From contig JAHEDG010000005.1 in NCBI GenBank assembly GCA_024641335.1, forward strand, positions 27,779 to 91,778: DNA of 64,000 nucleotides. The letters run 5' to 3'. This document shows positions 19,948-47,361 of this stretch, piece after piece. This stretch comes from Candidatus Zixiibacteriota bacterium (lineage in GTDB: Bacteria > Zixibacteria > MSB-5A5 > UBA10806). Within the stretch, counting starts at the first letter, position 1. Each line of letters starts with the position of its first letter. The notes below the pieces were generated by a model. The model was not told the origin of the DNA. It saw only the letters and a program-made list of their open reading frames with translations, and ran no database searches. A program made the position numbers and the translations under genes.

Positions 19948-22758
19948 CTATCGAATGGTTGGCATTTTGCCATACTCGTCTATGTCACGCAAACGATTGC
20001 TCGCCAATTGGTTGCCGGGATTTATCTGAAGTACGGCCTTATAGCCGGCCATAGCCGAGCTGATTTTTCCCAGATTCAGATAGCAATCCGCCAGTCGAAG
20101 CAAAGCTTCGAACTGTTTGGGGTTCTTTCTAATGTATCTTTCATAGAAAGGAATGGCTGTCCAATAGTTTTTGTTGTTGTAATGAAGATCTCCAAGAACG
20201 GCTTGAACCTCTGTATCGCCGGGAATCAAAGTAAGGTATTTTTCAAAGTAGGAAATCGACTCTTCATTCTTGTTTTGTTTCATCAGGGAAACAGCCAGAT
20301 TCCGATATCCGAAAGGAAAGTCCGGTTGATTCTCCAATGACATTCTATAACATTCCTCGGCTGACGAAAAATTGCTCTGCTTAAGAAAACAGTTTCCGAG
20401 ATTATTCCATGACGCGTAATCATTCGGATTCTGCCGGGATTGAGTCTGATAGCTTCCGGCGGCGGAAGCGTAATTGCCGAATTCGTATAAAAGATCGCCT
20501 TTGGCCATTAACACCTGTGGAGCGGTGGGGTATTTTTCCAGCAGCCGGTTAACCAGCTTGAGCGATTTCTCGTTATCGCCGTCGAGCGACGCCGCCGAGG
20601 CCAGCCCCAGCAATGACGGATAATATTCGGTATCGAATTCCAGAGATTTATTGAAACATTCGGCGGCTTTATCGGCCAATTTTTGATTCAAATATGTTTC
20701 ACCCTTCAAAAGATAAATCTCCGCGTCGGTATGACCGTGCCCTATGGCCTGATCGCAGTGAAAGTGAATTTTTTCCAAATTCTTTTTAGCCCTATAGCAT
20801 CGAGCTAGAAGATGATGGGTGAACTCATAATCCCCGCGCATTTCGATGACCGTATTCAGATATTCGATAGCTTTATCGATCTTGCCGGCCATAAACATCG
20901 AAAGACCCATACCGTAATAGGCCGAAAACTGGCTGTTGAGGTTATTCAGAATAAGCCCGTGCCATTCCCGATGTTCCGAGTAGCAGTCTCTGGCGGTCAG
21001 ATATCGATGAAACGCCTCCACCGCTTTATCGTACTCTCCCCCCTTGGCGAAAACATAACCGAGGTTGAACATGGGATCGAGGTAATCCTCTTTTATCTCC
21101 AGGGCTTTATAAAAATATTCCCTGGATTTTTCGAGCTGGTTTAATCCTTCGTATCCGCAGCCGATCTGATCGAGGGCCATTATATAAACATGCCTGTGAT
21201 CCACATCATCGGGGCCGATCAGCTCTATGGCTTTCAAGGCATGTTCCACACTCAAATCGGGCCTGGACATACCTCGATAAATCTGAGCCAGATTAAAATG
21301 GGAAAAGGCGTTATCCGGATCTTCCTCCAGCTGTTTTAGAAGAAGAGCCTCGGTTCTTTTGGCTTTGGCCTTCATCTGATCGTCGGAAAGCCCGTAACCA
21401 TGATGATATACTTTCAGGGGGCTCGCCAGAGAAACACCCTCCATCTTCAGCTGATTATGCACGATACCGTCATAACGGAATTCGGGACGGTTGCGAAACA
21501 GCCGGTGAGAGTTTAAAAATCCGGTGCGTCCCTGCTGTATTTTGTTCAAAACCACAAACGAGACAGCGTCGATATCCTTGCGTTTGGCGGCGTTTCTGAT
21601 CATATCATGTTCCGAAACTTCCAATTCCTCATCGGCGTCCAGGATCAGAATCCAGTTGCCTGTGGCATAATCGATCGATTGGTTGCGATGCAGCGAGAAA
21701 TCGTTCTGCCAGGGATGCTGATAAATTTTAGCGCCGTATTGGGCGGCGATTTCCATGGTACGGTCGGTTGAGCCGGTATCGACCAGTATTATTTCATCCG
21801 CGAGATCCTTAGCGCTTTCAAGGCATTGCGGAAGGAACTTCTCTTCATTCTTTACTATCATGCAAAGCGATATTTTTTGAGGATTCTTATCTATTGTGTT
21901 TTTCAAATGGCGCAGGTTGGATACCGCGACTTCATGTTTGGGATCGATAGCGATAGCTTTGTTGTAATATTGCTCCGCCCCGTCGTAGTCTCCCCGCTTT
22001 TCAAGGGTCACGCCGTAGTTTACCAGGGCGTCGACATCCTTAGGATGTTTTTTTAGTATATTCGAGAGAACCTCGAAGGCCTGATCGAACATCTCGCCGT
22101 CACCGTATACCAGAGCCTTGGCGTTCTCAAAAGCTATTTCATGAGGATATAACTTTGATCCTTCTTCGAGGACCTCGATAGCCGCTTCTATTCTTCCGTC
22201 TTTGCCCAGGTTGGTGGCGAAGACAATCCGGCGGAAATGATGGCCGGGATCGATTTTGACCGCTTTCTTCTGGTATTCCAGCGACTCCTTGATATTCAGA
22301 GTCCGCCTGGCAGCCTCGGACGCCATCCAGAGTGCGTCATTGAGATTATTATATGTCTGAGTCAAATATGATTCGTATTCAGTGTCTTTCTTGTCCCGTT
22401 CGGAAAGAAAGGATCTGGCCGATTCCAGAGCCTTTTCGAAATCGGAAAGATCGTTATATACCGCTGTTTCCAGAAAATAAAGATCCGGATAACCCCCGAA
22501 TTCGGCTCGCGCTTCCGCCAGTACCCCGACCGCCTCGGCCGATTGTTTTTTATTCAAAAGCGACAATACAAGACCATAATAAGCCAATGCCAGGCTTTCG
22601 CGCTGACCAGCCGCCTTGGCCTGACGCAACGCTTCTCTGAAATATTTCCCGGACTGCGAGATATCGTCCTTCTTGATATTTTCCCGCGCCAGTTTTAGAA
22701 GATCCCCGGTTTTTACCGTGAGCTTTTTATTTTCCGATTTTTTTTGTTTCTTGCCCAT
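19948..22758 (-). CDS. TPR–GT2–TPR glycosyltransferase (GmaR-like candidate flagellin glycosyltransferase)
   Basis: 936 aa. The central family-2 GT motif (ISLCMIVKNEEKFLPQCLESAKDLADEIILVDTGSTDRT...ILILDADEEL) is flanked by many TPR repeats on both sides. The gene is immediately upstream of fliC. Confidence 0.75.
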   Translation of the reverse strand: MGKKQKKSENKKLTVKTGDLLKLARENIKKDDISQSGKYFREALRQAKAAGQRESLALAYYGLVLSLLNKKQSAEAVGVLAEARAEFGGYPDLYFLETAVYNDLSDFEKALESARSFLSERDKKDTEYESYLTQTYNNLNDALWMASEAARRTLNIKESLEYQKKAVKIDPGHHFRRIVFATNLGKDGRIEAAIEVLEEGSKLYPHEIAFENAKALVYGDGEMFDQAFEVLSNILKKHPKDVDALVNYGVTLEKRGDYDGAEQYYNKAIAIDPKHEVAVSNLRHLKNTIDKNPQKISLCMIVKNEEKFLPQCLESAKDLADEIILVDTGSTDRTMEIAAQYGAKIYQHPWQNDFSLHRNQSIDYATGNWILILDADEELEVSEHDMIRNAAKRKDIDAVSFVVLNKIQQGRTGFLNSHRLFRNRPEFRYDGIVHNQLKMEGVSLASPLKVYHHGYGLSDDQMKAKAKRTEALLLKQLEEDPDNAFSHFNLAQIYRGMSRPDLSVEHALKAIELIGPDDVDHRHVYIMALDQIGCGYEGLNQLEKSREYFYKALEIKEDYLDPMFNLGYVFAKGGEYDKAVEAFHRYLTARDCYSEHREWHGLILNNLNSQFSAYYGMGLSMFMAGKIDKAIEYLNTVIEMRGDYEFTHHLLARCYRAKKNLEKIHFHCDQAIGHGHTDAEIYLLKGETYLNQKLADKAAECFNKSLEFDTEYYPSLLGLASAASLDGDNEKSLKLVNRLLEKYPTAPQVLMAKGDLLYEFGNYASAAGSYQTQSRQNPNDYASWNNLGNCFLKQSNFSSAEECYRMSLENQPDFPFGYRNLAVSLMKQNKNEESISYFEKYLTLIPGDTEVQAVLGDLHYNNKNYWTAIPFYERYIRKNPKQFEALLRLADCYLNLGKISSAMAGYKAVLQINPGNQLASNRLRDIDEYGKMPTIR

Positions 22759-28340: not shown

Positions 28341-30257
28341 CTACCTCAAAAATTGCAGTAATGACGGCTGAAGCATTTTCGAGGCCGATGCCAGCGCCGC
28401 CTGGTAAGCCGCTTCCGCGGTAGCCAGATCGGTGATTATTCTGGCAAAATCGGCATCTTCGATTTCAGACAGCTGGTTGGTAACCTGTATCTCGAACGAA
28501 AGGAGCCGGTATGATGCCGTCTCGCCCCTGTTAACTCTCGATCCGACGTCCGCTCTCTCATTGAGAACCTTATCCAGAGAGCCGTCAAATGTCTCCAGAC
28601 ATAAGCCGATCTCTTCGGTTTCGTTATTTTCAAGCGATCTGGATAGTACCATCATATTTCCCAAAATATCGGGGGAACCGAATATCCCGAGATCCTTGGC
28701 CGTTCGTCCGCCATCGGCCTCTATCACCATCAGAGATTGTCCCTCGACTTTGGAGAATAGCACGATTCCTGTTTTCTGTTCGTTTATCCTCGCCTCGACA
28801 TCGACCCCCGATGAGTTGATAAGATTGATAACATCCATAATTGTAGCGTCGGGATTACTGGTCATCGGAGAAAGATCGATATCCTTGGAGTTATGCCCGT
28901 TAGTTATTCTGAATTTCCCAAGGGGAAATCCCTGACCGTTGTTTAAAGCTGTCAGCTTGGTGAAGTAGGCGATTTCCGGGTCGAGATCATTTCCATCCAG
29001 GTAATTGAATTCGGCCTGCTTCAAAAGCCCCAAATTCTTGGCCGTGTTCTCGCCTGGAGCGTTTTCGACCACCTGAATATGCAAAGGAGCCAGATCCGTG
29101 CCTTCCATGCTCGATAATACCTCGCCCAGAATGCCCAAATCGGCCGCCGTATGGCTGCCCGACGCAACTTCTGTTATTACAATATCCAAAGGCGCGACAT
29201 TGGTATCTGTTATATGAAGAGCGTTTTTCTCCAGGTCTATCGACGCCGTGACATTGTTTATACCTCCGGCGGGCAGTTGCGTATTGATAGCCGTAAGGAC
29301 GTCCCCGACCGTAACCGCCGCGGTTATATCCACATCGACCGCCACCCCTCCGGCGGTTTCGAAATGTATCAGCCCTGTCGATTGATCTATACCCAGGCCG
29401 CCGTTAAGCAGGCTCAATGGGGTATTGGGATTAATATGATGAAGCGACGTATCTTCGAAAGCGAAGCCGCTCCCGGCATTATTTATCGTCGCGGTCAGAT
29501 TCGGGATAGCCAGGCCATTGACAGCGTCCATAATATCCTGAATATTCCTGGCCGCGGAAACGTCAACCACGTATTCGCCGTTTAGAGTTCTTATATTAAA
29601 TAAGCCTGCCCCCAGATCGACACCGTTGCCGTTATAAAGATAATCGAGCCATAAAGTTGGTTGTATGCCGACACTTAAGTCATGACCGTCCCCCAATGTG
29701 CGGGATGGAGAAGTCAGAAAATCCGCGGCATTGGAGTTTATCCCCAGATATGAGGCCGATTCGGTTTCCAGTAGTATTTTGGAGAAATCCCCCTGGTAGA
29801 CGATCCCCATGGCGTTGACATTAAACGGTTTGACATTGGTTCGGGTACCGGAGAAAATATAATTCCCCTCGAACTGCGTATTGGCGGCATCGATTATCTG
29901 ATCGAACAAATCTCTGATTTGGGTAGCCCCGCCCCGCCTGGCATTTTCGTCATAAGTATCGTTGGCCAGCTGAACACCCAGCTCCTTGGCGCTGGAAACC
30001 AGATCATTTATATTGCCCAAAGCCTGATCGGAAAATCCGAGCCAGGATAAACCCTGGTCTATATTTTTTCTAAACTGGGCCAAATCGGCGAGGTCCGATC
30101 TGAATCCGAGATCCTTGGTTATTCCGATAGGGTCATCGGACGGACGGTTAATACGTCGACCGGAGCTGGCCAGGGTTTGTAACCGCAGGAACCGCGACTG
30201 CGCCAGAGATAAATTCCTGGTCACGGTGTTGTTGATCATGTTCGAGGTTATTCTCAT
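28341..30257 (-). CDS. flgL: flagellar hook-associated protein 3 FlgL (638 aa)
   Basis: The N-terminus MRITSNMINNTVTRNLSLAQSRFLRLQTLASSGRRINRPSDDPIG and the C-terminus ...AYQAALASASKMLQPSLLQFLR are flagellin-like termini. A long central insert is present. Confidence 0.85.
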   Translation of the reverse strand: MRITSNMINNTVTRNLSLAQSRFLRLQTLASSGRRINRPSDDPIGITKDLGFRSDLADLAQFRKNIDQGLSWLGFSDQALGNINDLVSSAKELGVQLANDTYDENARRGGATQIRDLFDQIIDAANTQFEGNYIFSGTRTNVKPFNVNAMGIVYQGDFSKILLETESASYLGINSNAADFLTSPSRTLGDGHDLSVGIQPTLWLDYLYNGNGVDLGAGLFNIRTLNGEYVVDVSAARNIQDIMDAVNGLAIPNLTATINNAGSGFAFEDTSLHHINPNTPLSLLNGGLGIDQSTGLIHFETAGGVAVDVDITAAVTVGDVLTAINTQLPAGGINNVTASIDLEKNALHITDTNVAPLDIVITEVASGSHTAADLGILGEVLSSMEGTDLAPLHIQVVENAPGENTAKNLGLLKQAEFNYLDGNDLDPEIAYFTKLTALNNGQGFPLGKFRITNGHNSKDIDLSPMTSNPDATIMDVINLINSSGVDVEARINEQKTGIVLFSKVEGQSLMVIEADGGRTAKDLGIFGSPDILGNMMVLSRSLENNETEEIGLCLETFDGSLDKVLNERADVGSRVNRGETASYRLLSFEIQVTNQLSEIEDADFARIITDLATAEAAYQAALASASKMLQPSLLQFLR

Positions 30258-36718: not shown

Positions 36719-37450
36719 TTATACTATCCGCCCGAGATCGTTGACCGCTTTATCAAGGGTCTCGTCCTGGGCGCTGATCGCTTTCTGTCCGGCCTCGAAA
36801 GCCCGGAAAGATGCCAGCATATCGACCATCACGTCGACAACATTTACATTGGATTTCTCCAGATATCCCTGTCGAACCTGAAAATTATCGGCCGGTTTTT
36901 CCTGGCCGGTCGCCTGGGCCGCAGCGAAATAGGAATCTCCTTCCTTATTCAAAGCGTAAGGTTTCTCGAAATCCACGACTTTGATCTTACCCACTGTGGA
37001 ACCATCGACAGAAACCGTACCGTCCATACCGACTGTGAAATTATCGCCTGAAACAGTCAATGGCCCCGATTCGGTCAATACCGGGTTACCATTGGGATCG
37101 CTGAGTATTCCCTGCGGCGAAAGCAGAAAATTCCCGGATCGGGTATACCTGGGACCGGCTTCGGTCTCGACAACAAAAAAGCCGTTCCCTTCCAAAGCGA
37201 GGTTCTTATCATTGCCTGTATCTTCCAGATCTCCCTGGCTGAAATCGGTATAAATACCATCAACCATCGGAGTCTCCCAGGGAACATCCGTTATCAGTGA
37301 TTCTTTGGAGGCATCATTGAGAACCTGCAAGAATATGCCGTCCTTCTTGAATCCCGGAGTGTTCACATTCGCCATGTTGTTGGCGAAACTCTCCTGCTTC
37401 AGTATCCGGGGCAGCATCCCCGACGCCGAGCTGTAAATCCCTTTGATCAT
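36719..37450 (-). CDS. flgF: flagellar proximal rod protein FlgF
   Basis: 243 aa; MIKGIYSSASGMLPRILKQESFANNMANVNTPGFKKD and a FlgF/FlgG-family C-terminus. Confidence 0.8.
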   Translation of the reverse strand: MIKGIYSSASGMLPRILKQESFANNMANVNTPGFKKDGIFLQVLNDASKESLITDVPWETPMVDGIYTDFSQGDLEDTGNDKNLALEGNGFFVVETEAGPRYTRSGNFLLSPQGILSDPNGNPVLTESGPLTVSGDNFTVGMDGTVSVDGSTVGKIKVVDFEKPYALNKEGDSYFAAAQATGQEKPADNFQVRQGYLEKSNVNVVDVMVDMLASFRAFEAGQKAISAQDETLDKAVNDLGRIV

Positions 37451-37713
37451 TCAAACCCCCAAATTGACAATAATACCCACCGGCACTAAAGCAATCCGTA
37501 TGCCCTTTTGGCTGCTCTTTCAAAAAATAATCAGAGGCTTAAAAAGAGAACTTATTGGCCAGCCTAATCTCTTATAGTTTAACGAGATACGCTTACGCCG
37601 ATCCTACGGACAAACAGCCGGGTCGAGAGCCCGCTTCGGTAAACCGAATTTCCAGCAGGAAAATCTTTCTGGTGAGTATGATTTTTTTTCCGGGTATCCT
37701 AATAATCCAATAG

Positions 37714-37744
37714 AAAATCGACCCCTCGATAGGAGTCGATTTTT
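37714..37744 (-). terminator. bidirectional intrinsic terminator after the last receiver gene
   Basis: AAAAUCGAC-(uccuaucgaggg)-GUCGAUUUU followed by cuauu on the minus strand. A T-run is present on both strands. Confidence 0.5.
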
Positions 37745-37774
37745 GGGACTTTGGAATTTCAGCAAAATAGATCT

Positions 37775-38197
37775 TCAGGAATTGTAGGATACGGGCTGAT
37801 CAGCGGTAGATTTATTGCGCGCCGAAAGCAGACGCCAATAAGCTCTCTCGATAATCAATGAGACCTCGTGGCTCTTGAACGGTTTGGAGAGATATTCATC
37901 AGCGCCCTTGGTCAAGGCTTCCTTGACAGTATAAGCGTCGCCATACCCGGTCATGACAATTACCGCCATATCCGGCCATTCCGATTTCACTTTTGTCAAA
38001 AGCTCAAAACCGTTCATTCCGGGCATTTTGACATCGGACACCAACAAATCGAATTTCTCTATACGCAGTTTTTCCAGTGCTTCCGTAGCCGAGGAAGCCA
38101 GCGTAACCTTGTATCCTTCGATCTCGAGGATTTTTAAAAGCAAATTCCTCATCATCGCTTCATCGTCCGCGACAAGGATCTTTACATGTTCTTTCAT
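37775..38197 (-). CDS. stand-alone response-regulator receiver protein (CheY-like)
   Basis: 140 aa; ILVADDEAMMR...DLLVSDVKMPGMNG...VIVMTGYGD...SKPF shows all REC catalytic residues. Confidence 0.85.
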   Translation of the reverse strand: MKEHVKILVADDEAMMRNLLLKILEIEGYKVTLASSATEALEKLRIEKFDLLVSDVKMPGMNGFELLTKVKSEWPDMAVIVMTGYGDAYTVKEALTKGADEYLSKPFKSHEVSLIIERAYWRLLSARNKSTADQPVSYNS

Positions 38198-38289
38198 GCC
38201 CCTTTACTCCTTTATTAATATATCCGGGTCACGATGCATAGCAAGTTAGGTATCAGCTATTCTTAATATCGAATGTTTTCCCAGGATGT

Positions 38290-38673
38290 TTAATTATATT
38301 TTTGTGTTTTACTTGACAACAAATCCGAGATATTCTTCTTTATTTCGTTTAATTTGAAAGGTTTTCTCAATAACTTGTAATTGGTCAATACGTCCCAGTT
38401 TATGGAACTGCCCGATAAATCCACTCCGGCGGTCAAAATAACCGGAGTCTCGATAGACTGGTTTCTCATATTTATCAACAGCTCGTCCCCTCTCATTCTG
38501 GGTAATCCGATATCCGAAATAATCAAATCGAAACAGTCGGATTTCATCATCTTCCAGGCGTCCTCGCCGCTGGCGGCCAGATTTATATCATAGCCGAACC
38601 GCGTGACTATCTCGCCCACCACGTCCCTTACTTCCTTGACATCTTCGACAATCAATACTCTGCCCCTGGACAT
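38290..38673 (-). CDS. stand-alone response-regulator receiver protein
   Basis: 127 aa; VLIVEDVKEVRD...DLIISDIGLPRMRG...LRKPF. Confidence 0.85.
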   Translation of the reverse strand: MSRGRVLIVEDVKEVRDVVGEIVTRFGYDINLAASGEDAWKMMKSDCFDLIISDIGLPRMRGDELLINMRNQSIETPVILTAGVDLSGSSINWDVLTNYKLLRKPFKLNEIKKNISDLLSSKTQKYN

Positions 38674-38680
38674 AAAACGC

Positions 38681-39049
38681 CTATCCCTTCTTCACATCGG
38701 TTAAAAGCCTGACTATTTTTTCCGAATCCTTGATTATTCCTCCCAGGGCAGTCTCGATATTATGGATCAGATCCTGATCGACTGTGCTCTCTTGAGGGTC
38801 GGAAAATATATTTTTCGGCTTTTTCTCGGTTTTGGCGGCGCTTAATATCTGGTTCATATGCTTGACCGCCTGAGTTGCCTGGTTTACCAGTTGCGATAAC
38901 TTCTGATTGATTTCCACATTCAGGTTCTTTTTGTGAGACAGCTTGGCCGCCGCCACAGCTATATTCAATGCCAACAGCTGAATATCGCCGGAGACCGATT
39001 CCATATACTCCAGAAGCTCCTGACTGGTATATTCGACTTTATTTTTCAA
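38681..39049 (-). CDS. hypothetical helical protein with an MCP signalling-domain-like segment
   Basis: 122 aa. GDIQLLALNIAVAAAKL resembles the conserved MCP core NLLALNAAIEAARAGE. It overlaps the next gene by 4 nt. Confidence 0.3.
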   Translation of the reverse strand: MKNKVEYTSQELLEYMESVSGDIQLLALNIAVAAAKLSHKKNLNVEINQKLSQLVNQATQAVKHMNQILSAAKTEKKPKNIFSDPQESTVDQDLIHNIETALGGIIKDSEKIVRLLTDVKKG

Positions 39050-39417
39050 AATGTAAGATACTCCCTTACTTTACTTTTCAATTCGGTCAGGTCTGACGAT
39101 TTTACCAGGTAAGCATCGGCCAGCCACGACGTGAAATTGGCTTTATATGTGGAATACGCTGAATTTAATATGATCGGCACCCGGCCCGCCCTGCTCCTGA
39201 TTACCTCGAGCACTTCCAGGCCGTCCATATCCTTCAATTTGATATCCAAAATAATCAGATCGACACTTGAATCATGATTCAATCGATCGAGCGCTTCCTC
39301 CCCCGATCCAACCGAAAATGTTTTATAACCTTCAATTCCGAATTCGCTTTCATATAAGCTGCGGATTCCGGCTTCATCGTCAACAATTAGAATGTTTTTC
39401 ACTATTCCTCCTTGCAT
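39046..39417 (-). CDS. stand-alone response-regulator receiver protein
   Basis: 123 aa; ILIVDDEAGIR...DLIILDIKLKDMDG...NSAYSTYK. Confidence 0.85.
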   Translation of the reverse strand: MQGGIVKNILIVDDEAGIRSLYESEFGIEGYKTFSVGSGEEALDRLNHDSSVDLIILDIKLKDMDGLEVLEVIRSRAGRVPIILNSAYSTYKANFTSWLADAYLVKSSDLTELKSKVREYLTF

Positions 39418-41150
39418 AATGGCAGCTCGATTGTCAACCAGCCATGCAAATTATCCGACGAGCCAATTCCGATATCTCCGCCGTAATGCTGAAGTATCTC
39501 CAGAGCTACGGCCATCTCCTGCGATCTTAAATCTCCGTGTCCATCTCTAAGCACTCTATAGAACATTTCGGCAAATTCCCGGTAATTATCACCTCCGCCG
39601 ATAAATATTATAGCCGAGTCGAGACGTTTCTTTATCTCCATGGCGACTTTTTCGATACCGCCGACAATTCGCGCCGATTCACGCAAAATCACCATCATGG
39701 CTTCGTAAAACAATCCCTGATCCACAAATATCCTCGCGCCCAGAATCTCGATATCTTCCGTAACAGAGGGAAATCCGTCCGTTTCCGAGTTCACCATCAT
39801 ACCCAGAGCTTCTTTTACCAAATCGGTAAGAACAAATTTGTCTTCTTTCTTTTCGCTAAGTGATACGATACTGGAAAAACGGTCGAGTGTCTGCTCGATT
39901 CGCGAGGATTGTTTGGAAATTATTTCCAGCGCCGCGTAAGCAGGATCGTCCGAACTCGATTTACGCAACTGAGCGTTGGCATAACCACCGATTATGGTCA
40001 GGGGATTACGAACCTGGTGAGCTACATCGAGCGCCATCTTGGAAATACTCGATAATTTTTCTGCCCTGATCAGGTTTTCACGTGATCTGATAATCTGCCT
40101 GTTGGCTTCTTTGAGACTGAAGATTTGCCTTCGTAGTTTTCCGTATAGCCGGGAATTCTCAATAGCGTCTGAAGCGTACCTGGCGAAAATCTCCAGAAAT
40201 TTGACGTCCGTAGGCGAAATAGGTTTTCTGGTGACCATATTATCAGCGACTATCACTCCCAAACGTGATTCCATCGAGATAAACGGAACTACTGCCAATT
40301 CATCAACACCGAATTTCCTTCGAAGTTCAGGATCATTCCCCTCCAGCATCATATCCGGTCCGACTATAATAGATTTCTTTTCGAGGATCGCCCTCGACAG
40401 AAAATTGCTCCCCCCCGCTATGGGGATCTGAAGCGATACCACCAGCTTATTAACATAACCGTCATGAATTTTGGGATCGGCTTTATAGAGCCGCAATACT
40501 TCCTCTAACGGCAACGGTCTGGCCGAAAGGCTTTGCCAGATAGCTCCGGCGTCTTCACTGGATGATGGCCCCGTAGCCAGACAGCCATGTAATAATGTCT
40601 CGGAATCATCGGCCAAGAATATAAATCCCCTGTTGAATCCCAGGCCTGATCCGGAGGTCACCGCCAGCAGGACTATTCTCAGTATATCGGTCAGATTCTT
40701 CGTTTCTGAAAATGCCCTGACAGCCTGGTTAATTATATCCAGATCCCTTATTTTTGCCTGCAGCTTTTCAGAAATCTCCTTTTCGACGCACGTTTCGGAT
40801 ATAACGCAATTTATCGAATCATCCCCCTGCTCTCCTGATGGGAAACAAAGCAGATTGAACGCGCAAAAGAGGCCGCTGTTGGAACGCCGCTGGAATTGAA
40901 ATGACGACGATTCTCCGGCGAAAGATCTGTCCAGAGCCGCCCTGAGACCCGGGTCTTGCAGGGGCAGAAGTTCAGCCGAATTAATATCATCCGACCGCCT
41001 GGGAGCCCAGTCGGGTATCAAGCCATACCAGCTGAGCTTTTTAATCCTATGATCTTTTGTCAGGGTAAAATACGCTGCCAGCCGATCTATCGATTCGGAT
41101 GTTTCTTCCTGTTCAGTCGATGAAATCATAATACTACGGCCATCTGTCAA
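39402..41150 (-). CDS. GAF-domain sensor histidine kinase
   Basis: 582 aa. A central GAF domain is followed by a DHp carrying the phospho-His (DVAHQVRNPLTIIGGYANAQL) and a divergent HATPase-like C-terminus. Confidence 0.8.
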   Translation of the reverse strand: MTDGRSIMISSTEQEETSESIDRLAAYFTLTKDHRIKKLSWYGLIPDWAPRRSDDINSAELLPLQDPGLRAALDRSFAGESSSFQFQRRSNSGLFCAFNLLCFPSGEQGDDSINCVISETCVEKEISEKLQAKIRDLDIINQAVRAFSETKNLTDILRIVLLAVTSGSGLGFNRGFIFLADDSETLLHGCLATGPSSSEDAGAIWQSLSARPLPLEEVLRLYKADPKIHDGYVNKLVVSLQIPIAGGSNFLSRAILEKKSIIVGPDMMLEGNDPELRRKFGVDELAVVPFISMESRLGVIVADNMVTRKPISPTDVKFLEIFARYASDAIENSRLYGKLRRQIFSLKEANRQIIRSRENLIRAEKLSSISKMALDVAHQVRNPLTIIGGYANAQLRKSSSDDPAYAALEIISKQSSRIEQTLDRFSSIVSLSEKKEDKFVLTDLVKEALGMMVNSETDGFPSVTEDIEILGARIFVDQGLFYEAMMVILRESARIVGGIEKVAMEIKKRLDSAIIFIGGGDNYREFAEMFYRVLRDGHGDLRSQEMAVALEILQHYGGDIGIGSSDNLHGWLTIELPLCKEE

Positions 41151-41177
41151 TTCCCGATATGCGATACGCGCCGACCG

Positions 41178-42029
41178 TTACTCGCCAACTTTCAGTGTAA
41201 ATCTTCTTTCGGATCTGGCGGACGGTGAAACAAATTGCTGAGCGATCGACAAAATATTCGAGGCTTCTTTATCAATGGCTTTAAGACGTCGCAATACCGA
41301 GCTATTGGAATTCTTCATGGTCATGAGTAGAAACTGAGCGTTGCCGGCGATAATCGCCAGAGGATTGCTGATCTGCTGATTGAGCGTATCGGCCAGGTTA
41401 CCGCCTGCCTTGATCTGTTCCATTTTGCTCATCTCAATATGGGTATTTTTCAATTTTTCATTCAAGCTGTGAATTTCATCCTTGAATTCGGATTCGTATT
41501 TGGTGTTGGCTATCCTTTCAGCCAGAAGCTCCATCAAAGTGGCCACGATAGCCACCAGTTCGACATCACGTTCGGTAAACGAGTCGGGTTCGTCATGGGC
41601 TAAGTTAATCACCCCGGTTATTTCACCCCCGAACAGCATCGGAACGGAAAGAAACGATTTTGTATGAGAACCGGCCCTGGATTTCCTCAAATTATTCAGC
41701 ACAATAGGCCGTTTTTTTTGAGCCACCCAGGCAGAGATTCCGAAACCCATATCGAATTCGACAAAATCAATAAGATCCACCGTCCGCCCGATAGTGCAAA
41801 TCTCTTCGAGCTTGCCGCTTATTTTGGAATTCAAAAAAAGCGAAGCGGAGCGGAAATCCACCATTTTCCCAAGGTGCTTTAAGATCCCTTCAAATGAGTC
41901 ATCCGTTGCAGGCGAGCTTTGTATCTCGCCCGATATTTCACAAAGCAATTTCAGTTCGTTTTCGAAGCCTGTCATTCCGGATCTTTCTAAAGTTCGAGGC
42001 ACTATTCCCTCCGTAGTTTCAACCGCCAT
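41178..42029 (-). CDS. GAF–DHp protein lacking both the phospho-acceptor His and the ATPase domain (pseudo-histidine kinase)
   Basis: 283 aa. A GAF domain is followed by a DHp paralogous to the neighbouring kinase, but with NQQISNPLAIIAGNAQFLL (Gln in place of His). The protein ends after the DHp second helix. Confidence 0.6.
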   Translation of the reverse strand: MAVETTEGIVPRTLERSGMTGFENELKLLCEISGEIQSSPATDDSFEGILKHLGKMVDFRSASLFLNSKISGKLEEICTIGRTVDLIDFVEFDMGFGISAWVAQKKRPIVLNNLRKSRAGSHTKSFLSVPMLFGGEITGVINLAHDEPDSFTERDVELVAIVATLMELLAERIANTKYESEFKDEIHSLNEKLKNTHIEMSKMEQIKAGGNLADTLNQQISNPLAIIAGNAQFLLMTMKNSNSSVLRRLKAIDKEASNILSIAQQFVSPSARSERRFTLKVGE

Positions 42030-42042
42030 ATTTTCAAAGTAC

Positions 42043-42516
42043 TTATTTGCAGTCTTCTATTTTTAGAACTTCCTTCAACGCCTTGATCATCGAGCTCATC
42101 CTGAACGGTTTTTTGAAAACTTCCGTGACACTGAAAGGTTTTATGGAATCCAATCTTCTCGATCCTTTGGCGATTGTGGCAAAAACAGGCAAACCGGGCA
42201 TCATCGTTCTTATTATCCTGATAACCTCCGGCCCGAAGCACTCCGACTCGGACAGGTTGATTATCGCGGCGTCATGCCGCCCTGTAAGAGCTTCTGTTAT
42301 GGCCATTTTGCCGTCTTCCACCGTAACCACCTCGAATTTCGATTTGTTCTTTAACGAGTATTTTATCAATCTTCGTACGAATTCGTTATCGTCTCCGACC
42401 AGAATCCTCTTTCCGGAAAACGCCGGCAATTCGTCGGGATTGTCATGTTCGTAAGCAATTTTTATTTCATGTTGGCCATCAGATACCCGGCCAGTTTCTC
42501 CGCTAATTTCCTGCAT
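42043..42516 (-). CDS. receiver-domain protein with Asn at the phospho-acceptor position
   Basis: 157 aa; RILVGDDNEF...HDAAIINLSESECFG...FATIA...KKPF. The DD, T and K positions are conserved, but the acceptor Asp aligns to Asn. Confidence 0.7.
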   Translation of the reverse strand: MQEISGETGRVSDGQHEIKIAYEHDNPDELPAFSGKRILVGDDNEFVRRLIKYSLKNKSKFEVVTVEDGKMAITEALTGRHDAAIINLSESECFGPEVIRIIRTMMPGLPVFATIAKGSRRLDSIKPFSVTEVFKKPFRMSSMIKALKEVLKIEDCK

Positions 42517-43019
42517 GTTTTCTCTTCGGTCATCAGTCGTTCGGTTTGACTTGGGTACAAATCGGCGTCGTATTTATCGTTGAAGATATACTGGGCGCGC
42601 ACGCCTCCGGATGCATTCATCTTAAACAGCTTTGCCGGCTGACCATCGGCCGCCGACGGGATTTCCACATACGATTCCAGCTGATAATTTCTGGAATACC
42701 GGTTCAATATATATGGAATGGAAAAGGCCCTTTTAGTTTCCCACAAATTACGAGTAATTACGATATTTACGATATATTCCCCGGCCAACGGTTTATCGTC
42801 CGGGCCATTCAGGAGTCTGAACCTGCCGGGAAAACTGGCCAGACGCAGCTCTCTTTCCAAAGCCTCGGCCAAACGGTTCGAGGGATATTCGGCGACTTCG
42901 TTCAGGGATGTTATGGTTAATGCCAGATTGTCGGTTGGAATTTTCGAGCCCCAGGCAGAAATTCCGGGAATTCCTAAAAGCAATAACGATACAACTACTA
43001 CCCGGGACACTCTACTCAT
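42462..43019 (-). CDS. hypothetical secreted/periplasmic protein
   Basis: 185 aa with an N-terminal signal peptide (VVVVSLLLLGIPGISAWG). It overlaps the downstream receiver ORF by 55 nt. Confidence 0.4.
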   Translation of the reverse strand: MSRVSRVVVVSLLLLGIPGISAWGSKIPTDNLALTITSLNEVAEYPSNRLAEALERELRLASFPGRFRLLNGPDDKPLAGEYIVNIVITRNLWETKRAFSIPYILNRYSRNYQLESYVEIPSAADGQPAKLFKMNASGGVRAQYIFNDKYDADLYPSQTERLMTEEKTCRKLAEKLAGYLMANMK

Positions 43020-43761
43020 GATCCCCGCCGCCTTGTTTCCTGGATTCCACCTGCTGTTTGTAAATATACTGTACTACCAACTTTTGAAGGTTCTCGTCGA
43101 ATGTGCCGCTTCCTTCAGGTAGAAACTCGCCCAGCCTCTCGAGATTATATTTCGAGCTGTTAGCCTCATTTATGAATTCAGCCCCGACCAAAGACTTGCC
43201 GTCATCCAGAGATTCCACCCTCTTCACCACCGAAAGGATATTTTTCAGGGTATGATTGTCTCGCAGCCTTAAATTGACTACCAGGAGACTGCCCTCTTTA
43301 TGCTTTTCCCCGGACTCGAACAGGATTCCTCCGGCGGAAATATTAAGAAGATCACCTTTAGCCTCGGCGCTCAAAGCCCCGGTCATGTTTTGAGGATCAT
43401 CCAATATCCTGAAACTGATTTTACCCGAAATATCCAGCCTGACAAATTGCCGCCTCTGAACACGTTCCGTCTCGCTTATCTTTTCCAGTTCGGCAGAACT
43501 GCCCTCGCCAATAAACAAATCCTTTATGCTGGCCTTAAAAGTGTAGGCGGCGTCATGCTTATTATAGCTAACGTCCACTACGTCTCCTTTTGAAAGGTTA
43601 GTATTTCCACTCTGCTTTATGGGCATTTCGATGACGTATGAGCGCCTTTTTATATTTTCGATCCTGCTGAGATATTCCCCGGCCTGACCGCCACGGGTCA
43701 CCCGGATGGCTATTTTATCCCAGAGGGAGATCGTATCTTTTTTAGTAGTATATTTCTTCAT
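43012..43761 (-). CDS. YcgR-like PilZ-domain protein (candidate c-di-GMP flagellar brake)
   Basis: 249 aa. An N-terminal YcgR-N-like domain is followed by PilZ motifs RRQFVRL (RxxxR) and NISAGGILF (D/NxSxGG). Confidence 0.7.
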   Translation of the reverse strand: MKKYTTKKDTISLWDKIAIRVTRGGQAGEYLSRIENIKRRSYVIEMPIKQSGNTNLSKGDVVDVSYNKHDAAYTFKASIKDLFIGEGSSAELEKISETERVQRRQFVRLDISGKISFRILDDPQNMTGALSAEAKGDLLNISAGGILFESGEKHKEGSLLVVNLRLRDNHTLKNILSVVKRVESLDDGKSLVGAEFINEANSSKYNLERLGEFLPEGSGTFDENLQKLVVQYIYKQQVESRKQGGGDHE

Positions 43762-44939
43762 TATGCATTGACTTTATCAGATTTCTTAATCAGGCGGTTT
43801 TGTTCCAGCGACATCTCCAGGATCTTCTTGGCGTTGGCATAAAGTGACTTGTCGCCTTTGCTCCTGGTCATCATATCCTGCGATTGCCGAGTAGTAATTT
43901 TAAAATACTCATTGGCCTTTTCGAAGTCTCCGACTCTACGGGCGAGTTCGGCTATCATATAAGACGCCTGAAGCTGCTGCAGCCCGGGTTTGATCTCTCG
44001 GCTGTTCTGGTAGGCTTTCAGATAGTTTTCTAAAGCTAAAACCAAAGCCTCAGATTCGACGACCGGGATATCTGTCCATATTTCTCTGGCCTTGTACAAA
44101 AACTCCCTGAAACTCGGGAATTCGACGAAACCGTCCTGCGCCACCATAGCGCTCTTTTGAGCCAATACTTCCTTTTTCACATTATTGAATTGAGCCTGGA
44201 GATTTAAAATATCTTTTTGCATCGAACTCCAGACATTGTGCACGCTTTCTATCGCGGGAATCAGCTTGGTCGAGATCCCGGCCGTGGAGTTAATATTAAC
44301 CGTCGGCTTGAAATCGGCCGAAATCATCTGGTGAAGCGACGGCAGGTTAGAGCCGAAATCCTCGACGTTCTTCTTTAGCCTGTCGATCTCCAACTGAATC
44401 TTACTCAACATCAGCTGCGCCGGATCGGAGGATTCTTCGCCGACATTCATGTCGCGATAGATCCAGGCAATTCTCAGATAGAATCGGGCGATATCAAGGG
44501 CGGTCGGACGGTCCAAAAGCAACTCGTCATAAATGGCTAAAAGCAGTTTGATTACGGCCGATTCGCTCGGAAATAATTCGTTGCTGATATGCGAGCCCAG
44601 GAATTTAATTATACCGTTATCTATCGCGTTGGCTTCCTGATGTTTGGCTTTCTGGCCTGGAAGTTTATAAGATTTGAAATTACTGTTATTCTGCCATTCT
44701 TTATACGTTGAATTCAATTCCCGCGAATAATAGCAGGAATTGCAGGTAGCTGTAAAATAAAGAAGAGGGTTATATTTTTGATAAACGGGATTGGCCCAGG
44801 CTCTGCCGGTTGGGGCGAAATCAGTGTCCCGACCCGATTCGGTATAGGCTCCCTGCTTGATTACCTCGAATACATTAAGATTCCCGCATATCGGACATTC
44901 GAGCTTGATGTTGAAAAAGGGTCTATTATCCGCGGACAT
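43761..44939 (-). CDS. hypothetical protein with an N-terminal CxxC...CxxC zinc ribbon (DUF2225-like)
   Basis: 392 aa; LECPICGNLNVFEV...TATCNSCYY at the N-terminus, with the remainder helical. Confidence 0.4.
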   Translation of the reverse strand: MSADNRPFFNIKLECPICGNLNVFEVIKQGAYTESGRDTDFAPTGRAWANPVYQKYNPLLYFTATCNSCYYSRELNSTYKEWQNNSNFKSYKLPGQKAKHQEANAIDNGIIKFLGSHISNELFPSESAVIKLLLAIYDELLLDRPTALDIARFYLRIAWIYRDMNVGEESSDPAQLMLSKIQLEIDRLKKNVEDFGSNLPSLHQMISADFKPTVNINSTAGISTKLIPAIESVHNVWSSMQKDILNLQAQFNNVKKEVLAQKSAMVAQDGFVEFPSFREFLYKAREIWTDIPVVESEALVLALENYLKAYQNSREIKPGLQQLQASYMIAELARRVGDFEKANEYFKITTRQSQDMMTRSKGDKSLYANAKKILEMSLEQNRLIKKSDKVNA

Positions 44940-45005
44940 TTTTGGCCTTTCATTTCATGGTTTACAATAATTCTATCGGCAATACCGATTTTTCCTGAAG
45001 GCCGT

Positions 45006-45404
45006 TTATAAGCTTTCCGCGACTTCCGCTATTTCCGCGCTCCGTCTGGCCGTAGCCAATAGAATTCCCATCTCCGATTGTGAATAGCCGTACTCTCTGC
45101 CAACCTCCTCCGGCGATTCTCCCATCTGAAGCATTTGCAAAGCTCCGGCGATCCGGTTTTCGACCGTGGCCTCCGGTTGGGGCTGTTCCTTTTCGGTCTG
45201 GGGAAGATCCGTCGCGATTTCTCGTTCCTCCAGCATTGTTAGCCTGCTTAGAAGATCGGAATAATCCCGTTCGGGCTGCTGAACGCGTTGATTATCTTGT
45301 TGACTACTTTTTGCCTTCGAGTCACGCATATAAGCCCGCAGCAAAATTGCCATCACTGCCAGATTCGCCAATGACACTATCGATGTTACTATCGTGGAAA
45401 ACAT
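45006..45404 (-). CDS. hypothetical membrane-anchored protein with a C-terminal HTH-like segment
   Basis: 132 aa with an N-terminal TM helix. The C-terminal GESPEEVGREYGYSQSEMGILLATARR resembles a Fis/sigma-region-4 type HTH. Confidence 0.35.
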   Translation of the reverse strand: MFSTIVTSIVSLANLAVMAILLRAYMRDSKAKSSQQDNQRVQQPERDYSDLLSRLTMLEEREIATDLPQTEKEQPQPEATVENRIAGALQMLQMGESPEEVGREYGYSQSEMGILLATARRSAEIAEVAESL

Positions 45405-45417
45405 TGCTCCTCCTGTA

Positions 45418-45747
45418 TCAGGCCAGAAAATCTACGCTCTTGCCCTTAATATTATCGGGCGGGGACGTTTGCTGGCCGTTAGTCTTGTCCTTTTCATCAT
45501 CTTCTTCTAATTCGTCGTTTTCATCCTCTGCCGCGGTTTCTTCTTCCTCTTCGTCCTTGTGCAGAATGATTTCGTCTTTTTCGTTTTTCCGTTTTTTCTT
45601 TTTCTTCTCTTCGGCGATTTTCCTGTCTAGCTCGGCCACAAATTGCTTTTTTGTGGCCTCCCCGGTGCTGCCTTTCTTGGTATGCCGAACCTCTCTTATC
45701 GGTTCGCTTCGGGCCAGGTCGTTGTTCATTTCCACCCGTTCAATCAT
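45418..45747 (-). CDS. hypothetical highly charged (Lys/Glu/Asp-rich) protein
   Basis: 109 aa with low-complexity KKKKKRKNEKDE / EEEEETAAEDENDELEEDDEKD tracts. Confidence 0.3.
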   Translation of the reverse strand: MIERVEMNNDLARSEPIREVRHTKKGSTGEATKKQFVAELDRKIAEEKKKKKRKNEKDEIILHKDEEEEETAAEDENDELEEDDEKDKTNGQQTSPPDNIKGKSVDFLA

Positions 45748-45777
45748 GGGCCGCTCCAGTTAAAGCGTGATCTTTGT

Positions 45778-46536
45778 CTAAATTGCGAACTTGTCTCTAA
45801 TGGATATCCTCAGACGGGAGACAGCGCGCGTATGAATCTGCGATACCCGGGATTCGGATATCAGCATAATATCACCTATTTCCTTGAGAGTCAGTTCCTC
45901 ATAATAATAGAGAGAGACGACCAAACGTTCCTGCTCGGTCAGTCCGCTGATGGCCTGCATCAGGTACGCCTTCAGCTCTGTTTTTTCCATATCCGCTAAT
46001 ACATCGACCGTAGCCGTATTCTCTACTGTTTCGATTCGCGGCACCTGACGGTTATCGTCTTCGCGGCAAATCATCTCGTCCAGCGAAAGAAGCGATGAAA
46101 AACTCAAGTCTTTCTGGGCGCTGAAAAGCTCCTGAATCGAGATATCCAGAGTGGTGGCGATTTCATGGTTCGACGGACCGCGGCCGAGCTCGTTCTCTAA
46201 CTTGCTTACCGCCCGGTCGATATTTCTTGCCTTGGCCCTGGTGGAACGCGGCACCCAGTCTAAAGCCCGAAGCTCATCAAGGATTGCTCCCCGGATACGC
46301 GGAACGGCGAAAGTTTCGAATTTCACGCCGCGGCCGGGATCGAAATTATTGAAAGCCTCGATCAAACCTATTACCCCTGTGTTAACCAGATCGTTCAAAT
46401 CGACCGATTTGGGAAAAGTAGCCGCCATGCGTCCGGCCACATTTTTAACCAGGGGGAGATAATTGTTGAGGAGCTTATCCCGAACCTCGGAATCATTTGT
46501 TTCTTTGTAGTGTTCCCAGATTGCTGTAATTGCCAT
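45778..46536 (-). CDS. fliA: flagellar sigma factor sigma-28
   Basis: 252 aa with sigma-70 regions 2, 3 and 4 (LVKNVAGRMAATFP...GVIGLIEAFNNFDPGRGVKFETFAVPRIRGAI). Confidence 0.9.
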   Translation of the reverse strand: MAITAIWEHYKETNDSEVRDKLLNNYLPLVKNVAGRMAATFPKSVDLNDLVNTGVIGLIEAFNNFDPGRGVKFETFAVPRIRGAILDELRALDWVPRSTRAKARNIDRAVSKLENELGRGPSNHEIATTLDISIQELFSAQKDLSFSSLLSLDEMICREDDNRQVPRIETVENTATVDVLADMEKTELKAYLMQAISGLTEQERLVVSLYYYEELTLKEIGDIMLISESRVSQIHTRAVSRLRISIRDKFAI

Positions 46537-46575: not shown

Positions 46576-47361
46576 TTATCGTCCTGCGGAGCCGGAAATT
46601 GGAAGTAGTTCTATGCCGGTTTCAGGATCTGTTTCACTATGCAACACCCCGGACCTGTTCAAACTGATATTTTTCACGAATGAGATGAATTCGGCGGCGT
46701 TATTATCGATAACGAACTCTTCATATTCCCGCTCTGTTCGACGATACGTGTAACCGCCGTTGCCGACCTTCATCCCGAGAAATTGCCCCGTCAGAATATC
46801 AAACCTCTCCTTGAATGAAAGAGCGTGCTCCGGAGAATTGACAAACCCGAATACGGCTTTGACCCGTTCGGCCAGACCCTCCAAAGCCAGCGATTTCAAC
46901 AGACAGTATGACGATGCCACCGCGGAAGCTTCCGGTTTAATCAGAAGGAATATTTCCTCGCACAAATCGGCGGCGGCCATGGCCAGCGGATGATTCCCCG
47001 CCGGTGGATCGATAACCATGACCCCATACTTCCGTCCAAGACCGTGAATACTCCTGACCAGATTTTCAAGATCCCTGCGTCCGGGGTTGAGAACATCCGG
47101 AGGATTACAGGTTAAAAGATCGAATCCCATACCGGTATTTGTCACCAGTTCCTCGAGTCCGTTGTCGGCCTGGAAAATCTGATGGTAATCCGGAATGGCG
47201 CCACCGACTATATTCAATCCGCCGGTCCCGAAACAGAAATCGATCAATAACGTTTTCTGTCCGTAACGGGCCATGCTGATGGCGCTTCCCAAAGCGGAAG
47301 CGGTTCTGCCTGAACCCCCGGCGCCAGAAAGGAATACGATACCTTTAGCCGTTTCGGTCAT
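46576..47361 (-). CDS. flhG: MinD/ParA-family flagellar number regulator FlhG (YlxH-like) with a degenerate Walker A motif
   Basis: 261 aa with a MinD-like fold, immediately downstream of flhF. The P-loop reads IVFLSGAGGSGRTAS instead of SGKGGVGKTT. Confidence 0.7.
   Translation of the reverse strand: MTETAKGIVFLSGAGGSGRTASALGSAISMARYGQKTLLIDFCFGTGGLNIVGGAIPDYHQIFQADNGLEELVTNTGMGFDLLTCNPPDVLNPGRRDLENLVRSIHGLGRKYGVMVIDPPAGNHPLAMAAADLCEEIFLLIKPEASAVASSYCLLKSLALEGLAERVKAVFGFVNSPEHALSFKERFDILTGQFLGMKVGNGGYTYRRTEREYEEFVIDNNAAEFISFVKNISLNRSGVLHSETDPETGIELLPISGSAGR

Follow-up and report, generated by a model that had tools for sequence, protein, structure and literature searches.

Gene organization of the locus

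The window analyzed here is a stretch of 64,000 nucleotides (nt) from the genome of Candidatus Zixiibacteriota bacterium (GenBank assembly GCA_024641335.1, contig JAHEDG010000005.1, positions 27,779 to 91,778). The present study concerns two adjacent open reading frames (ORFs) on its minus strand: 41178-42029, which codes for a 283-residue protein composed of a GAF domain and a DHp (dimerization and histidine phosphotransfer) hairpin, referred to below as the GAF-DHp protein, and 42043-42516, which codes for a 157-residue receiver. An earlier interpretation made from the DNA alone (the sequence-only reading) had considered the two products to be the inactive ends of a putative phosphotransfer pair, with the receiver located 13 nt downstream. 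The 13-nt gap is correct, given an ATG start codon of the GAF-DHp gene at 42029 (the database version of the protein begins at a GTG nine codons in), but on the coding strand the receiver gene lies upstream.

According to the ORF list, all genes between about 35.9 and 47.4 kb of the window are encoded on the minus strand, with little space between them. Their order is flhG, fliA, two small conserved ORFs, a DUF2225 gene, ycgR/PilZ, a lipoprotein-like ORF, the receiver, the GAF-DHp gene, a gene for a 582-residue protein with PAS-like, GAF, DHp and degenerate CA-like modules (CA, catalytic and ATP-binding), a single-domain receiver (RR123), a helical protein of 122 residues, two further single-domain receivers (RR127 and RR140), flgF and flgG. 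A scan of species-representative genomes revealed GAF-DHp orthologs in 21 Zixibacteria loci; the synteny counts given below refer to the 20 of these that include the 5' side of the GAF-DHp gene, and in these 20 loci the flhG-to-flgG neighborhood matches that of the window. Both ORFs are intact genes of this conserved Zixibacteria flagellar operon. Neighboring genes of the module are separated by short gaps or overlap in the 20 loci, which suggests that they are co-translated. The operon boundaries were not callable, because the counts of promoters and terminators in a scan of positions 37300-45100 were no higher than in shuffled sequence. For none of the module proteins did any NCBIfam family reach its cutoff.

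A GAF-DHp family without a catalytic domain

The GAF domain of the GAF-DHp protein (residues ~22-145; 41595-41966, minus strand) was recognized by the Pfam GAF/GAF_2 profiles with an E value of ~1e-12. The DHp region exhibits a weak HisKA match (residues 212-266, E value 8e-4, under the gathering score), and no HATPase_c module was found by Pfam even at E ≤ 1. In the AlphaFold2 (AF2) model (22 family members, pLDDT 80), the GAF domain (residues 22-145) is followed by a long connecting helix (153-208), a helical hairpin (212-237/243-265) and a disordered tail; the DHp hairpin (residues ~212-265) is thus encoded by positions 41235-41396 of the minus strand, and the protein ends ~18 residues past the second DHp helix. 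The Foldseek matches of the model are GAF domains, the uppermost being the cAMP-bound GAF domain of Lcd1 (5w10). Of the features that define a HisKA kinase, the DHp hairpin fold is present, whereas the phospho-acceptor His and the CA domain, with its N, G1, F and G2 boxes, are absent. The Pfam search and the disordered tail of the model agree with the previous observation that the ORF terminates right after the DHp.

The replacement of the phospho-acceptor His by Gln, also proposed earlier, was reproduced in three alignments. Gln218 (codon CAG, 41376-41378, minus strand) occupies the His column of the in-family alignment, where the window protein reads LNQQISNPLAIIAGNAQFLL and its homologs read LNHEINNPLAIIAGNAQFLL, leaving no ambiguity in the register. 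The same placement was obtained by BLASTP against the 582-residue neighbor and by a profile-profile comparison with the DHp of that neighbor, in which Q218 stands opposite H378 (probability 95%, E value 4e-8). The DHp contains no other conserved His, and Asn222 occupies the position termed His+4.

A homology search with the GAF-DHp protein yielded 213 matches, and the family statistics were compiled from the best 120 of these 213. The source names of the homologs are in line with an assignment of the organism to Zixibacteria. The 120 homolog clusters are 47-64% identical and 240-301 residues long (median 282); all contain a GAF domain and none contains HATPase_c. Their His column is occupied by K (38), Q (29), H (21), E (12), R (10), D (4), N (2), T (2), G (1) and A (1), such that the His is absent from 100 of the 121 aligned sequences (~83%) when the window protein is included. 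The following position, His+1, is mainly Lys. While the His position varies, DHp residues 222-255 are near-invariant across the family: all 120 homologs share the same residue at positions 226-227, 229-234, 239, 248-249, 252 and 255, and 119 of them have the Asn at His+4.

In a neighbor-joining tree, the 21 His-keeping sequences form a single clade, and one change is sufficient to account for the distribution. More distant CA-less DHp proteins of Fibrobacterota, Rhodothermus and Bacteroidota, which share the IIxGNAQFL signature with the Zixibacteria family, all keep H-E or H-D, so the His is taken to be ancestral. The alignments and the tree thus indicate that the phospho-acceptor His was lost once in the family, after which its position drifted neutrally and the rest of the DHp remained under very strong purifying selection. 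Since the missing CA domain is a genuine and conserved trait, and since ~83% of the family is His-less while its DHp is strongly constrained, no role of the GAF-DHp protein other than a phosphorylation-independent one fits the data; whatever its function, it does not involve phosphotransfer through that residue.

Retention of the H-E/D pair without a CA domain, in the His clade and in the Fibrobacterota, Rhodothermus and Bacteroidota relatives alike, would be in line with a split system, in which a CA domain or a receiver from another locus phosphorylates the DHp in trans. Split kinases of the CheA type are indeed known (Hik36/Hik43; PMC7656254). Such a scheme is relevant only to the His clade, however, and is inapplicable to the window protein and to the ~83% of the family that lack the His and have no other conserved His in the DHp; as an account of the family it is very improbable. 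For the window protein itself, phosphorylation in trans is excluded by Gln218.

The sequence-only reading had also raised the possibility that a frameshift removed a downstream HATPase domain. Such a frameshift or assembly artefact, as well as a pseudogene, can be excluded because the length of the protein is conserved family-wide and its neighborhood is shared by 20 loci; moreover, the 27-nt spacer that follows the gene has no room for a domain. In its broader form, the argument holds that both peculiarities of the locus reflect decay or faulty data, the Asn found at the phospho-acceptor site of the receiver (see below) being a sequencing error. A single transition separates the Asn codon (AAC) from an Asp codon (GAC), and the sequence derives from a metagenome-assembled genome (MAG). 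Nevertheless, the homologs (best 120 of 213) are of conserved length with the same next gene in the syntenic loci, the receiver carries an additional substitution (Ile at its T position), and its orthologs have E or G at the Asp site, so that we give this explanation almost no credence. The GAF-DHp protein thus belongs to a phylum-wide family devoid of a catalytic domain and is not a truncation.

Several CA-less DHp proteins were also observed beyond Zixibacteria. In Fibrobacterota/Chitinivibrionales (loci L022-L071, e.g., L026:7194-8303), about 50 genomes code for a protein of ~370 residues with transmembrane (TM), HAMP and DHp regions. Its gene adjoins proB/proA-like genes and not flagellar genes, and in the two loci for which neighbors were listed (L026 and L054) the gene that follows it codes for a lipoprotein-like product and not for a CA domain. 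The corresponding Rhodothermus proteins contain ~200 residues (L072:7590-8189 and L073), and a version from a Bacteroidota MAG contains 102 (L074:3186-3494).

The 582-residue neighbor

The next gene of the operon (39402-41150, minus strand) follows the GAF-DHp gene after the 27-nt spacer, and this adjacency is found in every locus, with the genes either 0-30 nt apart or overlapping. Its 582-residue product is publicly annotated as a "GAF domain-containing sensor histidine kinase", and the sequence-only reading had likewise regarded it as a GAF kinase, the real kinase of the locus. Pfam matches HisKA and GAF in this protein, but no HATPase_c at E ≤ 1. When it was aligned with HK853 and 16 orthologs, the N-box Asn was missing, G1 was deleted and G2 was devoid of glycines in the window protein and in all 16 orthologs, and the structural HYGG-I-G motif was all that survived in the C-terminal domain. 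In precomputed Pfam assignments, PF02518 occurs in none of ~90 orthologs, whereas it is present in more distant GAF/PAS kinases of the same match list. The AF2 model (pLDDT 77) comprises PAS-like and GAF domains, a DHp at residues 313-430 and an alpha/beta domain at 436-577, and Foldseek matched it to histidine kinase (HK) cores. His378 (40017-40019, minus strand) is invariant among the orthologs and Glu379 near-invariant, the window copy alone having Gln at His+1.

The designation of this protein as a kinase could therefore not be maintained, in view of the lack of a detectable HATPase_c and the missing N, G1 and G2 boxes. Judging by its motifs and its model, the annotated kinase is probably not a kinase. 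The architecture, the loss of motifs and the invariant His378 fit a candidate phosphotransferase of the Spo0B/ChpT type.

The GAF-DHp protein had been described as a clear paralog of this neighbor. Homology across the GAF and DHp regions was confirmed, although 26% identity over 198 residues (pairwise BLASTP E value 4e-5) renders the relationship less than clear. This common ancestry, together with the invariable adjacency of the two genes (0-30 nt apart or overlapping), would be expected if the GAF-DHp protein heterodimerized through its DHp with the 582-residue protein and poisoned or modulated it, by analogy with RetS and GacS. Heterodimerization of the RetS and GacS DHp domains provides an experimental precedent (PMC8498467), and a RetS-GacS co-complex (7n0e) appeared among the Foldseek matches. 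The presumed target is not an active kinase, however, and hence offers no autophosphorylation to inhibit. In addition, the two DHp domains are only ~23-26% identical and are conserved differently, helix 1 after the NPL motif being invariant in the one and variable in the other, and the CA-less DHp relatives in Fibrobacterota have no such neighbor. On these grounds we consider heterodimerization unlikely.

The upstream receiver

The receiver (42043-42516, minus strand) narrowly passes the Pfam Response_reg model PF00072 (35.1 bits compared to a cutoff of 30.2). It has an N-terminal extension of ~35 residues, and the beginning of its gene shares 55 nt with the lipoprotein-like ORF upstream. Asn87 (codon AAC, 42256-42258, minus strand) occupies the phospho-Asp position, as had been proposed: it aligns with the phospho-Asp of PhoP and RR468 in phmmer alignments and is likewise placed in two MAFFT alignments that include Escherichia coli CheY. 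The accompanying proposal that the DD, T and K positions are kept is correct for the D42/D43 pair and for the Lys of the KPF motif; the T/S column is occupied by Ile, and the Thr is found one residue upstream (FATIAKG). With a Pfam REC domain and D-to-N and T-to-I substitutions, the protein fits the definition of a pseudo-receiver in PMC12632262. According to the same source, pseudo-receivers are common (several percent of ~2 million REC domains), and their typical bacterial substitutions are D to E and DD2 to N. Orthologs of the window receiver show substitutions of this kind, namely D to E, DD2 to N and T to A.

A word-index homology search with the receiver retrieved the query alone. An exhaustive phmmer search of 1.8e9 representative proteins retrieved ~8 orthologs, the best being 39% identical; their phospho-Asp site is occupied by D or E. 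In the syntenic loci the gene is found in 13 of 20, always in the same slot, and is missing from the remaining seven (L001, L002, L003, L006, L008, L011 and L020). The closest relatives of the window's GAF-DHp protein are among those encoded in receiver-less loci (58-62% identity in L001-L003, L006, L008 and L020), and in the receiver-less loci the GAF-DHp protein is fully conserved.

Residues were counted in 14 receiver copies, i.e., those of the 13 loci and the window. The phospho-Asp column contains D in 10 copies, G in two, E in one and N in one, the last being the window; Asn at this site is thus found only in the window among the 14 syntenic copies and the eight further representative orthologs. 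Six copies have lost the DD pocket, six have C, Y, A, V or I in the T/S column, and two have Q in place of the Lys; all five catalytic residues are kept in only four of the 14. Neither of the two substitutions, for which an ortholog check had been proposed, is a conserved feature: the His column of the GAF-DHp family is varied, with Gln in 29 of 120 homologs, and the Asn of the receiver is restricted to this genome.

The degeneration of the receiver is also unrelated to that of its neighbor. In L004 and L019 a His-less DHp is accompanied by a canonical receiver, and in L014 and L015 a His-containing DHp is accompanied by a receiver with Gly at the Asp site. Because loss of the Asp does not track loss of the His, the matched inactive pair in the window is a coincidence of two independent processes. 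These comparisons portray the receiver as a facultative and fast-evolving component that loses its catalytic residues independently of the partner's His.

The alternative view, in which the receiver and the GAF-DHp protein are an obligate cognate pair that lost Asp and His together and signals by mutual binding, derives its appeal from the adjacency of the genes (13-nt gap), from the constant position of the receiver in 13 of 20 loci and from the fact that a D-to-N change preserves the shape of the docking surface. It is difficult to reconcile with the seven loci that lack the receiver, among them those of the closest GAF-DHp relatives, where the GAF-DHp protein is fully conserved, and with the absence of correlation between His and Asp status. 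Moreover, the receiver is 34-43% identical between species, compared to the invariant docking stretch of the DHp, which is unlike co-evolving partners, and we therefore regard such a pair as quite improbable. For the same reasons, the sequence-only view of two ends of one phosphotransfer pair is not supported. Its suggestion of a phosphorylation-independent function retains its value for the GAF-DHp protein, with its mostly His-less and constrained DHp, but not for a pair whose receiver is facultative.

Downstream receivers and the helical protein

Three single-domain receivers are encoded on the minus strand downstream of the 582-residue protein, and their assignment is based on Pfam scores, alignments and synteny: RR123 (39046-39417; 76 bits), RR127 (38290-38673; 66 bits) and RR140 (37775-38197; 107 bits). 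All of their catalytic residues are in place (DD, D, S and K in RR123; ED, D, T and K in RR127; DD, D, T and K in RR140). By its sequence motifs, the module consists of three canonical single-domain receivers and no recognizable kinase, and neither CheA nor a recognizable HATPase_c was found among the proteins scanned in the flagellar cluster of the window.

The receivers differ in conservation. RR127 is poorly conserved between species, and RR140 is 64-84% identical across Zixibacteria. RR123, which overlaps the stop codon of the 582-residue gene by 16 nt, has a near-invariant alpha4-beta5-alpha5 half (PIILNSAYSTYKANFTSWLADAYLVKSSD...) over 18 loci, with KS in place of the usual KP after the conserved Lys; this conservation suggests that it is an output partner. 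A search for the cognate receiver by exceptional conservation of helix alpha1 gave no winner among the three (top-residue frequencies of 0.67 for RR123, 0.52 for RR127 and 0.80 for RR140).

A helical protein of 122 residues (38681-39049, minus strand), encoded between RR123 and RR127, occurs in every Zixibacteria copy of the module with 47-65% identity. Its gene overlaps that of RR123 by 4 nt and is translationally coupled to it. The segment LLALNIAVAAAK recalls the hairpin tip of methyl-accepting chemotaxis proteins (MCPs), with a sub-threshold Pfam match to MCPsignal (E value 0.0067; 16.7 bits compared to a cutoff of 34.6). In a sequence search of the PDB with this protein nothing was significant, MCP chains appearing only at E values of 8-10, and the resemblance is thus regarded as a weak lead.

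Proposed role of the GAF-DHp protein

Positions His+4, +7, +8, +11, +12 and +15 of the DHp contact the receiver according to the HK853-RR468 complex and specificity-residue work. In the GAF-DHp family these six positions are invariant or nearly so, as is the start of DHp helix 2. From this we infer that the invariant surface, formed by DHp helix 1 after the H-box, corresponds to the receiver-docking region of HisKA DHp domains, and for this reason the protein most plausibly docks a receiver without exchange of phosphate. Our preferred interpretation, with a probability of roughly 45%, is that the GAF-DHp protein, under the control of its GAF domain, either docks the canonical CheY-like receivers of the downstream genes independently of phosphorylation or acts as their phosphatase.

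According to this interpretation, a GAF-DHp dimer would dock one of these receivers, without phosphate exchange and with either of two outcomes. The dimer may sense or sequester the receiver, in the manner of DivL, or it may speed the dephosphorylation of the receiver through hydrolysis of the acyl-phosphate via Asn222, as a CA-less HisKA DHp can. The GAF domain would gate the docking in response to a small ligand; the neighboring PilZ and HDOD genes hint, speculatively, at a ligand of the cyclic-nucleotide type. The 582-residue neighbor, which contains the His and resembles Spo0B/ChpT, would distribute phosphate from a kinase of another locus among the receivers, and the GAF-DHp protein would act either together with this neighbor or in competition with it. 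The role left to the Asn87 receiver would be that of an accessory pseudo-receiver, which is fixed in a non-phosphorylatable state and may occupy the same docking surface. In the family-level facts that underlie the docking or phosphatase model we have very high confidence.

Several considerations weigh against this interpretation. The docking, phosphatase and GAF-ligand roles are all putative, being derived from sequence conservation and from analogy. The invariant Asn-Pro-Leu could be structural, as a kink of helix 1, rather than catalytic, and the 582-residue neighbor also contains it. In HisKA enzymes the His assists the phosphatase activity (PMC7005713), and a His-less protein may consequently be a poor phosphatase. 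Since the invariant stretch spans every face of the helix, a conserved dimer or heterodimer interface would explain it just as well. No cognate receiver could be singled out, alpha1 being not exceptionally conserved in either RR123 or RR140. Finally, the CA degeneracy of the 582-residue protein is itself deduced from sequence motifs and a predicted model.

A wider interpretation, which we advance as doubtful, extends the docking model to the entire module. Zixibacteria flagellar operons would carry a kinase-free, two-component-like module, the DHp bundles of which serve CheY-like receivers as docking platforms gated by GAF domains; one bundle is His-less and CA-less, and the other possesses the His together with a dead CA domain. 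Binding between DHp and receiver would itself be the signal, because the His was lost under continued strong selection. Together with their relatives in the FCB (Fibrobacteres-Chlorobi-Bacteroidetes) superphylum, these proteins would form an unrecognized class of DHp-only adaptors or phosphatases, which the TM-HAMP-DHp proteins of Fibrobacterota and the short Rhodothermus and Bacteroidota proteins bearing IIxGNAQFL would join.

Although histidine pseudokinases and pseudo-receivers have been described before, the mechanism of action is clear for only a handful of them (DivL, RetS and RocA). The present case offers a large natural family, with over 200 sequence clusters across the sampled Zixibacteria, in which a His-keeping clade stands beside a His-less clade and the DHp is otherwise invariant. 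This constitutes an internal evolutionary control that separates the binding role of the DHp from its role in phosphotransfer. As a pair, the two ORFs are less surprising than had been proposed, and they are more interesting at the level of the family and the module. The matter bears on the counting and wiring of two-component systems in uncultured phyla and on flagellar regulation in these bacteria.

The surrounding flagellar genes

The first gene of the stretch, in order of transcription, codes for an FlhG-like ATPase (46576-47361, minus strand, as are all genes of this section for which positions are given, unless noted), followed by FliA (45778-46536) and by two small conserved ORFs (45418-45747 and 45006-45404). 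A plus-strand ORF of 227 codons (45080-45763) overlaps the latter two; its product is of low complexity and rich in Ser and Phe, and the ORF is most likely spurious.

Between fliA and the signaling module, most Zixibacteria loci contain a trio (42462-44939 in the window) that consists of a DUF2225/TPR protein (43761-44939), a YcgR-type protein with PilZN and PilZ domains (43012-43761) and a lipoprotein-like ORF of 185 residues, the last situated between the PilZ gene and the receiver gene. The conserved trio hints at an input of cyclic di-GMP into the same operon. At the other end, FlgF and FlgG are encoded after RR140 and are last in the order of transcription.

The remainder of the window is one large flagellar cluster that includes FliK, FlgD, FlgE, FliM, FlhA, FlhF, FlgK, two giant flagellins, FliD and an HDOD protein. 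The two flagellin-family proteins are unusually long (744 and 638 residues), and the shorter one, encoded directly after FlgK, may represent FlgL. A 936-residue protein with TPR and GT2 glycosyltransferase modules adjoins sugar-modifying enzymes and is possibly involved in flagellin glycosylation. The HDOD, long flagellin and glycosyltransferase genes occupy positions 12592-13491, 17516-19750, 28341-30257 and 19948-22758.

Comparison with known systems

In the open-access literature we found no description of a natural, conserved family of CA-less and mostly His-less GAF-DHp proteins or of a kinase-free flagellar module, and literature searches on Zixibacteria motility found neither a genetically studied strain nor an account of this family. 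The known systems that resemble parts of the module are compared below.

The 582-residue protein is reminiscent of Spo0B and ChpT, in which a DHp four-helix bundle with a conserved His is followed by a C-terminal Bergerat-like alpha/beta domain without ATP-binding elements (PMC3433190). ChpT, which comprises a DHp and a pseudo-ATP-binding domain, does not autophosphorylate (PMC3433190). We also count as a likeness the location of the 582-residue gene next to several single-domain receivers. It differs from both in its added PAS-like and GAF sensors and, in this genome, in the Gln at His+1, and its loss of ATP binding is judged from the missing N, G1 and G2 boxes.

The window receiver resembles the pseudo-receivers (PsR) and aspartate-less receivers (ALR), which are recognized as REC by Pfam and lack phosphotransfer residues (PMC12632262; PMC4395418). 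Unlike a fixed PsR family, its orthologous group comprises canonical as well as degenerate receivers, and many genomes dispense with the gene. We see in it a receiver on its way to becoming a pseudo-receiver.

RetS-GacS and RocA-CovS are systems in which an HK-like protein regulates another through direct contact and not through phosphotransfer, as might be the case for the GAF-DHp protein. The partners in those two systems are active kinases, whereas the 582-residue neighbor lacks ATP-binding motifs.

In HisKA enzymes, the T/N at His+4 of the H-E/D-x-x-T/N motif is the activating residue of the phosphatase reaction (PMC7005713), and phosphatase activity in vitro persists in HK853 after removal of the CA domain (PMC7005713, citing PMC5727384). 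Like such isolated DHp phosphatases (HK853 or EnvZ without CA), the GAF-DHp protein has a DHp alone and keeps the Asn of the motif (Asn222; 119 of 120 homologs). The isolated DHp phosphatases are engineered and retain the His, which assists catalysis, whereas the GAF-DHp proteins are naturally CA-less and mostly His-less.

DivL of Caulobacter crescentus, in which the His is replaced by Tyr, binds DivK~P via the receiver-docking face and has neither kinase nor phosphatase activity (PMC4211667). The GAF-DHp protein is likewise HK-derived, with a replaced phospho-acceptor His. DivL, however, keeps its CA domain and a specific Tyr, whereas the GAF-DHp protein has no CA domain and an unconstrained His position (K/Q/R/E/D). 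The two also differ in their sensor domains (PAS in DivL, GAF here) and in their context, the alphaproteobacterial cell cycle as opposed to a flagellar operon of the FCB group. By analogy, the GAF-DHp protein would be most like DivL or an isolated DHp phosphatase in its mode of action, while being a member of neither group.

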